Part shown: positions 54,685-55,492 of the stretch, piece after piece | Position numbering within the stretch: position 1 is the first letter of the stretch | Layout: the number at the start of each line of letters is the position of its first letter | IMG/VR virus record: IMGVR_UViG_3300020044_008989 | Span: 1 to 64,000 of that record | Source of the DNA: an uncultured virus (IMG/VR IMGVR_UViG_3300020044_008989) | Lineage: Duplodnaviria; Heunggongvirae; Uroviricota; Caudoviricetes | Direction: 5' to 3' (one strand) | Length of the DNA stretch: 64,000 nt | The notes under the pieces: generated by a model | Seen by the model: only the letters and a program-made list of their open reading frames with translations | Told to the model about the DNA's origin: nothing | Databases searched by the model: none | Made by a program: the position numbers and the translations under genes

Positions 54685-54780
54685 TTTTGCCGTGCCTCCG
54701 CTGGCCGACCCGAAAGTTGTCGGGGAAGTCTCAAATAGCGCACCTCTGTAAGTTTGCGGGGGAGTTTGAGAGCGGCGAAA
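54685..54780 (+). ncRNA. structured ncRNA element 1 (multibranch)
   Basis: closing stem TTTTGCCG/CGGCGAAA; inner stems CCGAC/GTCGG, TCTCAAAT/GTTTGAGA, CCTCTGTAA/TTGCGGGGG. Confidence 0.5.
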
Positions 54781-54785
54781 AATTT

Positions 54786-54855
54786 GATGCCACCTGACTT
54801 CGGGTTGAAGCGGTGATACCAGTGACGTAAGTGGGTTCGACTCCCACCACGCATC
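54786..54855 (+). ncRNA. tRNA-like element 2 (T-arm, no cloverleaf)
   Basis: GTGGG-TTCGACT-CCCAC at 54831-54847; GATGC/GCATC closing helix. Confidence 0.5.
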
Positions 54856-54899
54856 GCGGAGAATTGCAACCTGCCGACAACGTGGTTGCTTAAATTTTT

Positions 54900-54992
54900 G
54901 GGAACTCCCTTTGGAGGGTGGGTAAGCGCGCTGTAGTTGGGTCGCTCCTAATTGCATAAAAGCCCAAGCTGGTTCGATTCCAGCAGTTTCCA
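54900..54992 (+). ncRNA. tRNA mimic with alanine identity elements (G3-U70, A73), no anticodon loop
   Basis: acceptor GGGAACT/AGTTTCC+A; T-arm GCTGG-TTCGATT-CCAGC; long interrupted helix in place of the anticodon arm. Confidence 0.65.
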
Positions 54993-55000
54993 CATTTTAA

Positions 55001-55181
55001 AGACCTTCGGTTACTTGGGTTATGGATTGCCCTTAAAATCCCGCCTCGCAAGGGGAGTAAAAAACATTAACCGCCGAACATGGGTAATCAAGAAGACCCT
55101 CAGTAGCGCAAGCCTTTTGTGTAGAAAACGGGACTGGAACGGATAGGTAAAGGCCACCAGTGACAGCTTAGAGAGACAGCA
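55001..55181 (+). ncRNA. structured ncRNA element 4 (unclassified)
   Basis: hairpins GACC/GGTT, GGATT/AATCC, CCTC-GCAA-GGGG, GGGT/ACCC, ACTGG/CCAGT between U-rich spacers. Confidence 0.45.
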
Positions 55182-55187
55182 TTTTAT

Positions 55188-55293
55188 GGGGGCGTGGCAA
55201 CAATAAGCTGTTATAGCAAAGCCTAACGGTAGGGCTTCGGAACAGGCACTAGACGCCGATTGCCTTGAGGGTTCGATCCCCTCCGTCCCCTCA
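55188..55293 (+). ncRNA. enlarged tRNA-like element 5
   Basis: acceptor GGGGGCG/CGTCCCC; T-arm GAGGG-TTCGATC-CCCTC; three internal arms; non-canonical anticodon loop. Confidence 0.6.
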
Positions 55294-55304
55294 ATTTTCT
55301 AAAC

Positions 55305-55390
55305 AATGAGAGCCTAATGCAAAACGGGCCACTCCCGAAAGGGATGAATGGGGACTTTTCGAGCATCGAAAGTGGCAATTCTCATTTCCA
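55305..55390 (+). ncRNA. CCA-terminated structured RNA element 6 without a T-arm
   Basis: 7-bp stem AATGAGA/TCTCATT followed by T-CCA; inner GCCACT/AGTGGC and TCCC-GAAA-GGGA. Confidence 0.55.
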
Positions 55391-55394
55391 ATTT

Positions 55395-55492
55395 AAGCGT
55401 ATAGTGTAACGGCAGCACACTCAAGTCCGAGACGGCGAAAGCTGGAGTAGGCATGCAAATGGAGGGAGAAAGTTCGATTCTTTCTGCGCTTA
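55395..55492 (+). ncRNA. tRNA-like element 7: canonical acceptor, D and T arms with a ~28-nt insertion in the anticodon loop
   Basis: AAGCGTA/TGCGCTT; D-arm TAGTGTAACGGCAGCAC; T-arm GAAAG-TTCGATT-CTTTC. Confidence 0.65.

Follow-up and report, generated by a model that had tools for sequence, protein, structure and literature searches.

What occupies the roughly 800 bp at positions 54685-55492 of an uncultured phage genome, where several tRNA T-arms stand in line, no credible open reading frame (ORF) is found and no canonical tRNA can be called? The window, i.e., the whole stretch of DNA analysed here (64,000 nucleotides, nt), comprises the first 64 kb of a 148,420-bp IMG/VR virus record (IMGVR_UViG_3300020044_008989; completeness estimate, 91%), and we divide its island at 54685-55492 into seven modules, in the order alpha, A, 2, beta, 3, G and 4. 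A first-pass annotation, made from the letters alone, had read the island as about seven tRNA-mimic RNAs. This holds for units 2, 3 and 4, which are tRNA-derived; unit A has a T-arm only, and alpha, beta and G are, judging from their sequences, not tRNA mimics but separate phage RNA families without a match in Rfam 15. Our collective results show that the island is a plus-strand set of about seven folded RNAs maintained by selection; it is real and explained by no curated family, and its function we infer. The motifs, conservation, covariation, strand, modularity and absence from Rfam on which we draw were observed directly. With slightly better than even confidence, we favour a co-transcribed set of separately folded, stable RNAs that would be excised by the tRNA-processing enzymes of the host, with the tRNA frame as their handle and scaffold.

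T-arms and tRNA-derived units

Searching both strands of the 148,420-bp genome for a strict T-arm pattern (5-bp stem, TTCRANN loop, G53-C61) gave five occurrences, four of which lie within 54831-55484, all on the plus strand, the fifth belonging to a genuine tRNA-Leu at 90.6 kb; the mean over 50 shuffled genomes was 0.8, and none of them had more than 3. The T-arm motifs (GGTTCGA/AGTTCGA) begin at 54834, 54971, 55270 and 55471, exactly where the first-pass annotation had placed them, and, as it had also stated, three of the four carry a perfect 7-bp acceptor on the T-arm (54900-54991, 55188-55290 and 55395-55491, i.e., units 2, 3 and 4), with the 5' partner 7-mer lying 55-79 nt upstream. No 7-bp acceptor partner was found for the T-arm at 54831. 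ARAGORN at default settings called neither tRNA nor transfer-messenger RNA (tmRNA) in the window, and Rfam at gathering score with default filters returned no match there, which agrees with the earlier statement that no canonical tRNA or anticodon arm is present. Under permissive Rfam filters (54400-55600), the T-arms other than those of units 3 and 4 gave only 17-nt local matches to tmRNA models. The claim of a GC-elevated region free of credible ORFs was likewise borne out: GC reaches 0.46-0.53 across 54600-55499 against a genome mean of 0.42 (148,420 bp), none of the three ORFs overlapping the array (140, 81 and 64 aa) has a PHROG match, and their frames are broken in relatives by a 113-nt deletion and 1-nt indels.

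Unit 4 (55395-55492, plus strand; 97 nt and discriminator A) is the unit with canonical acceptor, D-arm and T-arm. It fits the tRNA model at the acceptor, U8, the D-arm (A14/G18/G19/A21), the variable loop and the T-arm, and reaches 37.9 bits in sensitive mode only (gathering score of RF00005, 29). In the place of the anticodon arm it has 41 nt against the 15 of the model, i.e., an irregular 45-nt arm instead of a 17-nt anticodon arm; in the folds this insert forms an irregular rod, interrupted by internal loops and topped by a small hairpin that is kept despite changes, and no anticodon loop appears. A homologue in a 165-kb phage (L005; L-numbers denote IMG/VR loci) differs at 23 of 97 positions. 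Both sides have changed and still pair at two acceptor pairs, one D pair and two T pairs, and two further acceptor pairs changed on one side with pairing kept. The differences amount to 16 of 51 positions in the tRNA frame and to 3 of 33 in the insert flanks, which fits the earlier proposal of a frame kept for processing and stability that displays a custom domain. A palindrome in the insert was dropped as a candidate feature, being absent in L005.

Unit 2 (54900-54992, plus strand; 92 nt and discriminator A) combines the perfect 7-bp acceptor with a T-arm at 54968-54984, U at -1, G3-U70, A73 and a non-canonical centre. It is 99% identical to its counterpart in L006, and the sole T-stem change (G-C to G-U) leaves the pair intact; its D-arm is ambiguous in constrained folds. 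Unit 3 (55188-55291, plus strand; 103 nt and discriminator U) has the perfect 7-bp acceptor, a T-arm at 55267-55283, U at -1, a D-arm-like hairpin (AGCC-UAACGGUA-GGGC) and an extra stem (GGCAA/UUGCC); in sensitive mode it scored 17.9 bits against the Rfam tRNA model (55220-55283), below the cut-off, with 15 nt against the model's 9 in the anticodon arm. In constrained folds both units show D-loop-like hairpins with GG, plus extra stems. None of units 2-4 has a 5-bp anticodon stem with a 7-nt loop, and the constrained folds give other arms. Unit A (54786-54891, plus strand) is the weakest unit: it is a cassette in which a T-arm (54831-54847) without a 7-bp acceptor is followed by a hairpin and a U-rich tail, and no homologue was found among the related loci compared. 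Neither unit 2 nor unit A matches the Rfam tRNA model, sensitive mode included.

Units of the same plan were found elsewhere. A scan for a perfect acceptor with a T-arm, covering the window and 24 array regions (25 regions), detected nine tRNA-like units of 64-139 nt in seven regions; U stands at -1 in eight of the nine, and N-CCA is encoded in two. ARAGORN at default settings calls none of them, and the central arms of the relatives' units have no common anticodon. Since the scan required perfect stems, it missed imperfect units that were seen by eye in L050, L062 and L151.

Could these be working tRNAs whose short introns are spliced out? ARAGORN run with -i at thresholds of 70-90% does place such calls at 55394-55493 and 55188-55292, and at a lowered threshold it reads unit 4 as tRNA-Cys(GCA) with a 28-nt intron. 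However, the relaxed run places 23 calls across the genome, mostly absurd ones whose introns reach 2.5 kb; inserts of 28-45 nt are far too short for group I introns, no Rfam intron matches, the genome has no RtcB and the proposed anticodon stem is mismatched. Moreover, the supposed intron is better conserved than the supposed exons, the missing common anticodon of the relatives also speaks against decoding, and unit 4 has discriminator A where tRNA-Cys has U. We find splicing hardly credible here.

The alpha, beta and G modules

The alpha module (54685-54781, plus strand) is a predicted pseudoknotted RNA in which P1 (54685-54692 with 54773-54781) is followed by the conserved 5' junction UGCCUCCGCUGGCC and then by P2. 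The sizes of the alpha and G families were counted in IMG/VR. For alpha, a scan with its 5' motif gave 31 loci, 23 of them confirmed by nhmmer, and the alignment holds 24 distinct sequences, the duplicates L151, L063, L141 and L142 having been left out. The family fold comprises a 10-bp P1, an 8-bp P2 and a 4-bp pseudoknot joining the 5' junction to the P2 loop. Over P1, P2 and the pseudoknot, 93.2% of the alignment cells are paired, versus 32-51% when the partners are slid; both sides change in 14 of 22 pairs, and none of 500 shuffles reaches any of the five measures used. The copy of the window is 98% identical to that of L006, and alpha has no Rfam match. A search for the alpha pattern in genome contigs gave no full alpha in 120 loci among the matches listed (best partial match, 18 bits); a looser earlier scan, with the pattern TGCCGYGCYTNNGCTGGC, returned mostly chance matches among those listed. 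Two candidate features were abandoned, namely a likeness of the alpha 5' end to the Alu domain of the signal recognition particle RNA, which has no Rfam match, and a pairing between alpha and beta, which is not kept in L006. In about 9 of the 24 alphas (L008, L023, L060, L062, L143, L036, L148, L099 and L078) the closing helix is followed within 1-3 nt by CCA; the alpha of the window is not among them.

A longer form, alpha2 (130-160 nt), shares its ends with alpha and lies 5' of G in L004, L006, L007 and L008. In the joint alignment of alpha2 and G, 17 of the 58 predicted pairs covary.

The G module (55305-55390, plus strand) is a predicted three-way-junction RNA closed by a 7-bp P1 (AAUGAGA/UCUCAUU) that is followed by U and CCA (55388-55390); it corresponds to the unit in which the first-pass annotation had recognised a separate 7-bp stem with NCCA. 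Starting from a near-invariant block (55294-55392), pattern scans of IMG/VR led to six further loci. The pattern CCCGAAAGGGATGAATGGGGAC gave no match, and CCCGNNAGGGNNGANNNGGGACT gave nine loci, three of which (L014-L016) were rejected as G by the covariance model. The fold is closed by a helix of 7 bp that is invariant and contains two further helices that covary, a GNRA-type hairpin and long invariant single strands. Among the seven sequences, 98.6% of the cells are paired versus 38-53% with slid partners, and 6 of 20 pairs show double-sided changes. None of 500 shuffles attained the covariation score, 32 attained the number of double-change pairs and 456 the number of further pair types; hence, from these alignments, we rate the covariation of G as good, not overwhelming, at seven sequences. 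The closing helix is followed by N-CCA in six of the seven. G is 99% identical between the window and L006, occurs as a single copy in each of the five phage records searched (50 to 165 kb), and shows no likeness to any Rfam family; a search of 185,579 prokaryote genomes gave no exact copy of its motif. A three-codon ORF within G was discarded, its stop codon being lost in L003.

The beta module (54993-55187, plus strand) appears to be a multi-hairpin RNA that ends with GUGACAGC and a hairpin with a GAGAGAC loop. It is 89% identical to its counterpart in L006, and the consensus fold of the two sequences accommodates three compensatory and three consistent changes with no disruptive one; in a further stem, CGGUUA/UAACCG of the window corresponds to CGAACA/UGUUCG in L006, three consecutive pairs being changed. 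The 3' 34 nt of beta recur in L005, and by eye we recognise its end motifs in L023, L029 and L036. Given that conserved stems of the island contain G-U pairs, the structures lie on the plus strand.

Several observations concern what surrounds alpha in other phages. In L043 it is directly followed (5403-5509, minus strand) by a 107-nt tRNA of 49.4 bits that ARAGORN misses at default settings; it has a D-arm of the tRNA-Leu type, the anticodon loop CUCAUGA, a 39-nt variable arm and an encoded A-CCA. By eye, and in comparison with tRNA-Leu sequences, the units after alpha in L023, L043, L062 and L143 presumably share this type of D-arm. About 30-80 nt past the alpha of L137 (2660-2740), a stretch resembles by eye the 5' half of a tRNA with the loop UUCUAAA (anticodon CUA, amber-reading) and no T-arm after it. 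Right after alpha, L036, L063, L141 and L148 have a stem GAGCGC...GCGCUC around a T-arm-like hairpin (ACGG-UUCGACU-CCGU) on its 5' side, an arm order that appears permuted; the version in L029 and L138 is a bare hairpin. Finally, the motif GATCTTTGA(C) lies 0-40 nt 5' of the first module in L008, L036, L062, L138, L148, L149 and L151, which are GC-richer phages, and may either be a site of processing or act as a promoter used by a polymerase or sigma factor specific to the phage.

Module exchange and genomic setting

How these modules behave as units of inheritance can be read from relatives. Twelve public sequencing runs hold 5-14% of the sampled words of the stretch, and four of them, labelled lake water, freshwater or drinking water, were compared; blastn of the island and of the L151 array against 50,697 GenBank phages found no homologue, the lone match being 43 tRNA-like nt in a Thermus phage tRNA-Arg. 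Run X1 supplied a syntenic relative in a contig of 4.2 kb, and L006 represents the same form. In both of these, as well as in contigs of run X3, the segment 54779-54891 (unit A) is gone without replacement, and in X1 and L006 the segment 55145-55293 (unit 3) is replaced by 202 other letters that hold an alpha-type unit. The coding DNA flanking the island is 82% and 85% identical to L006; hence, the shared RNA modules are better conserved than the surrounding genes. Run X4 supplied a 265-nt contig covering 55052-55283 with 18 differences and no gap, and a short contig covering 55427-55594 with 12 differences, showing that unit 3 and the junction of unit 4 with the downstream Gad1 gene are present in another population.

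These comparisons bear on the idea of a decaying tRNA cluster, in which the units would be pseudogenes eroded by insertions. The units are indeed tRNA-derived and rejected by default tRNA finders, and unit A has lost its acceptor. However, alpha, unit 2 and G stand at 98-99% identity to L006 against 82-85% in coding DNA, the acceptor, D and T stems of unit 4 are preserved by compensatory changes, and perfect acceptors with T-arms persist in the relatives from distant phages, so that we regard decay as very improbable. The first-pass annotation had itself named matches to known Rfam families or normal tRNAs, and homologues that decay without covariation, as outcomes that would speak against a new system; we found no such match, and the homologues covary and show no decay.

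Modules are swapped between relatives at AU-rich linkers, and the alignments indicate that they are gained and lost as cassettes. Alpha occurs alone in L060, where a stop codon precedes it and a terminator follows, and in L098, L099 and L144; alpha2 is joined to G in L004, L007 and L008, and a tRNA-like unit to G in L003. The opposite picture would be a single large ornate RNA, in which the whole island, or alpha with the tRNA-like unit and beta, forms one multi-domain molecule that may resemble GOLLD, with tRNA-like domains built in and perhaps a higher-order assembly. This is suggested by the lack of a terminator or clear promoter within the island and by the order alpha, tRNA-like unit, beta, which is common to phages of very different GC (the window and L006, L023/L151, L029 and L036). 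In contrast, every module is self-closing and is found alone in other phages, modules are inserted, deleted and swapped among close relatives, no conserved pairing between modules was seen by eye, and neither GOLLD, ROOL nor any other Rfam family matches, at E values up to 10 here and up to 1 in five relatives. Since the modules close on themselves and occur singly, the comparison argues for a string of separate RNAs, and we consider the single molecule unlikely.

The genome around the island has a tailed-phage gene set (DnaB-like helicase, ribonucleotide reductase, J-like tail protein) along with genes for ThyX, a sigma factor, UvdE and an HNH endonuclease. The genes beyond about 48 kb lie on the plus strand, and the island lies inside this run together with genes for a glycosyl hydrolase of family 46 (GH46; 53469-54128), ThyX (58300-58944), a sigma-70-type factor (58941-59456) and a UvdE endonuclease (62040-62930), all on the plus strand. 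Genuine tRNA-Leu(UAA) and tRNA-Arg(UCU) genes stand side by side at 90543-90712 and are the only default ARAGORN calls in the whole genome; since the phage has these ordinary tRNAs, the island is not its tRNA supply. No integrase or resolvase, be it a tyrosine or a serine recombinase, was found in the 91%-complete genome; the island belongs to an uncultured freshwater phage that is probably lytic. This bears on whether the T-arms mark a DNA element, which could be a replication origin or an attachment site built from the 3' halves of tRNAs. Attachment sites are established to copy, often, the T-arm and acceptor 3' end of a host tRNA, and in relatives the islands lie near replication and recombination genes. 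However, besides the missing recombinases, both strands of the acceptors are present, and covarying stems with G-U pairs are strand-specific; we give a DNA element almost no credence.

The gene directly 3' of the island (55531-56442, plus strand) encodes a homologue of Gad1 (Gabija anti-defence 1; PF25705, E 7e-75) with 34% identity to the Gad1 of phages phi3T and SPbeta. Unit 4 and Gad1 behave as one indel (55393-56437), replaced by 2 nt in the X1 contig and in L006, and in L005 unit 4 is present without Gad1. A query with the Gad1 protein found no related loci in IMG/VR. The linkage raises the question of whether the island is punctuation only, that is, a set of cis-acting cleavage and stability signals that would split the operon mRNA and determine how long flanking mRNAs, for instance that of Gad1, persist, the excised RNAs being functionless. 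In keeping with this, the island lies inside a plus-strand operon, U at -1 with acceptor and T-arm are established RNase P cues, alpha often stands right after a stop codon and unit 4 moves with Gad1. Such signals, however, need neither the invariant single strands of G, nor the pseudoknot of alpha, nor an insert better conserved than its frame, as in unit 4, and one cleavage site needs fewer than seven modules. Mere punctuation is thus improbable in our judgement.

We return to the set of separately processed RNAs that we favour. In the model that we propose, the island would be transcribed with its neighbours in a long plus-strand operon of early-type genes, and the transcript would then be cut into about seven separately folded stable RNAs. 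RNase P, RNase Z and the CCA-adding enzyme, like other proteins that grip the top half of a tRNA, recognise its acceptor and T-arm. Units 2, 3 and 4 would be tRNA genes whose anticodon and variable region were exchanged for other structured arms, and which keep the cues for maturation: a U stands at -1, the 7-bp acceptor is stacked on a canonical T-arm, and a D-arm completes the elbow. RNase P would cut their 5' ends, and RNase Z, or exonucleases together with the CCA-adding enzyme, would finish their 3' ends; the same cuts would free alpha, beta and G, which lie between them and each of which would close on its own terminal helix. Given that units 2-4 keep the features for processing and lose those for decoding, we take the tRNA frame to be a handle for processing and a scaffold that resists nucleases, and the conserved non-tRNA arms, together with the alpha, beta and G folds, would be the working parts. 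Most likely, these would target a host factor in trans during early infection, for takeover or counter-defence; such a role is a reasonable guess, nothing more. That the RNAs are co-transcribed, stable and active in trans, by which route they are processed and what they target are all points that we infer.

Several results weigh against this model. For units A, 3, 4, G and beta, shuffled sequence folds with similar energy (z of -0.21, -0.87, -0.02, -0.33 and +0.98, compared with -2.31 for alpha and -2.30 for unit 2); as single-sequence folding energies are unremarkable, the case rests on the motifs and on what relatives show. The folds of units A and 3, for which there is no aligned homologue, come from one sequence, and units 2 and 4 have one homologue each. 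Promoter-like sites are at chance level (6 versus 4.9 expected), and no promoter or terminator stands out in the scan of the island; the sigma70-like promoter at 54428-54456 that the first-pass annotation had placed upstream did not hold up, as its -10 element matches at three of six positions, the scan does not list it and a 64-aa ORF lies between it and the array. None of the 12 runs that hold the stretch is on record as RNA. Gad1 is a neighbour of the island in this phage lineage only, and the genes that flank islands in other phages (RecT, AAA_24, a single-stranded DNA-binding protein and HNH endonucleases) offer no link to a target; they mark an early replication and recombination region. 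The recurrence of alpha, tRNA-like unit and beta in distant phages could mean, judging from module order, that the parts work as one molecule. Lastly, the phage genome has no gene for Ro60 (TROVE domain), RtcB or a CCA-adding enzyme; processing would therefore fall wholly to host enzymes.

Two further features lie close to the island. The 64-aa ORF directly 5' of alpha (54487-54681) is kept in L006 and in contigs of several runs and has, as its sole family match, a weak PHROG hit (E 0.008); its stop codon overlaps an extended -10-like site (TGnTATAAG), which is lost in L006. Genes for homing-type endonucleases of the HNH_3 type (57792-58319 in the window, 10627-11244 in L008) lie within about 2.3 kb of islands and, recalling segB in the tRNA cluster of phage T4, may by analogy be a cause of the cassette-like turnover.

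A broader proposal, which we advance tentatively and regard as unlikely, is that uncultured freshwater phages possess exchangeable RNA cassettes, in which anticodon-less tRNA frames that present conserved RNA arms alternate with at least three undescribed classes of structured RNA (alpha, beta and G), and that these are released by tRNA-processing enzymes of the host and serve as RNA-level agents of counter-defence or takeover. If so, the cassette RNAs might, for example, sequester immune effectors or other host proteins that hold tRNAs by the acceptor, T-arm or elbow, unit 4 with its linked Gad1 would be a cassette of an anti-defence island, and RNAC and RNAD of phage T4 would be of the same functional kind. 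Apart from function, the plan of an anticodon-less tRNA frame beside other folded RNAs appears widespread in uncultured phages, modular and under strong purifying selection. The island adds at least two well-supported families that are missing from Rfam 15, alpha (24 distinct members with a covarying pseudoknot) and G (seven members), and one of its tRNA-frame units shares a cassette with a proven anti-defence gene family. Moreover, the island offers short, synthesisable RNAs for tests of processing, partners and defence effects.

Comparison with known systems

How does the island relate to structured RNAs already described? According to the portions of a recent preprint available to us (10.1101/2024.12.08.627333), GOLLD and ROOL are phage-encoded, highly structured RNAs found near tRNA islands, and a GOLLD linker between a variable 5' and a conserved 3' part can carry tRNAs. 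The island is of similar size (about 800 nt), and is likewise phage-encoded and structured; the name GOLLD refers to lakes, and relatives of the island come from runs labelled lake, fresh or drinking water. However, no GOLLD or ROOL match was found at E values up to 10 in 54400-55600 and in the alpha2+G region of L008, or at E values up to 1 in L023, L036, L029, L062 and L043, and, unlike GOLLD and ROOL, the modules of the island fold independently and also occur singly.

Bacterial Y RNAs (YrlA, bound by Ro60/Rsr) mimic the acceptor, D and T region of tRNA without an anticodon; their ends form the Ro-binding stem, the tRNA-like part being internal. In the tRNA-like units of the island, in contrast, the ends form the acceptor; there is no Rfam match and the genome has no TROVE/Ro60 gene. 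With tmRNA the units share acceptor and T-arm and a large insert in the place of the anticodon arm, and unit 2 has G3-U70 and A73, the alanine identity set, as in tmRNA. They differ in that only their 17-nt T-arms match tmRNA models (bit scores of 15.1 and 11.4, where the cut-offs are 47 and 84), a credible tag reading frame is missing, and a permuted ARAGORN call arises at the 80% threshold only.

A tRNA of phage T5 is reportedly used against the PARIS system. Counter-defence phage tRNAs of this type are decoding tRNAs with altered loops, whereas the island units have no canonical anticodon arm; lacking anticodon loops, the RNAs cannot be decoys for nucleases that read the anticodon, one of the decoy roles that the first-pass annotation had suggested. 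From the sections available of one study (PMC13096335), phage tRNA-type RNAs in variable loci with homing endonucleases counter tRNA-cutting immunity, as with the tRNA-Tyr of phage T6 and Septu. The gene next to the island also belongs to a proven anti-defence family, that of Gad1. A survey of IMG/VR, as far as its accessible text goes, lists 8,495 candidate structured RNAs, 'tRNA-like' ones included (PMC10690425), and alpha or G may already stand there without a name. Our search of the literature on decoys or arrays of tRNA-like phage RNAs turned up no account of an island like this one.

Engineered tRNA scaffolds, built to express recombinant RNA, carry a foreign RNA where the anticodon arm would be and owe their processing and stability to the frame. 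Unit 4 shares this plan; the scaffolds are a laboratory design, and here the same use would be a natural one.

For fifty years, phage tRNA clusters have been known to hold stable RNAs that are not tRNAs, namely RNAC and RNAD (species 1 and 2) of T4, and these would be the closest precedent by analogy of layout. Both are small stable phage RNAs arranged head to tail with tRNA genes. RNAC (NC_000866, 70908-71046) is 139 nt long; its T-arm is canonical (CCGGG-UUCGAAU-CCCGG), its acceptor is imperfect (two U-U mismatches) and its insert measures about 100 nt, and hence it seems, by its sequence, to be a tRNA-derived RNA with a large insert. The G model reached at best 9.6 bits in the T4 region, without sequence likeness, and no T4 counterpart of alpha, beta or G was seen. 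The T4 RNAs flank eight genuine tRNAs and the island holds none. The available parts of two reports (PMC3014915; PMC9697503) describe the roles of RNAC and RNAD as unknown. In T4 they lie beside tRNA-Arg and the homing endonuclease gene segB, just as HNH genes lie near the islands here and in L008, and the layout of RNAC matches that of units 2-4 and G in plan, not in sequence.

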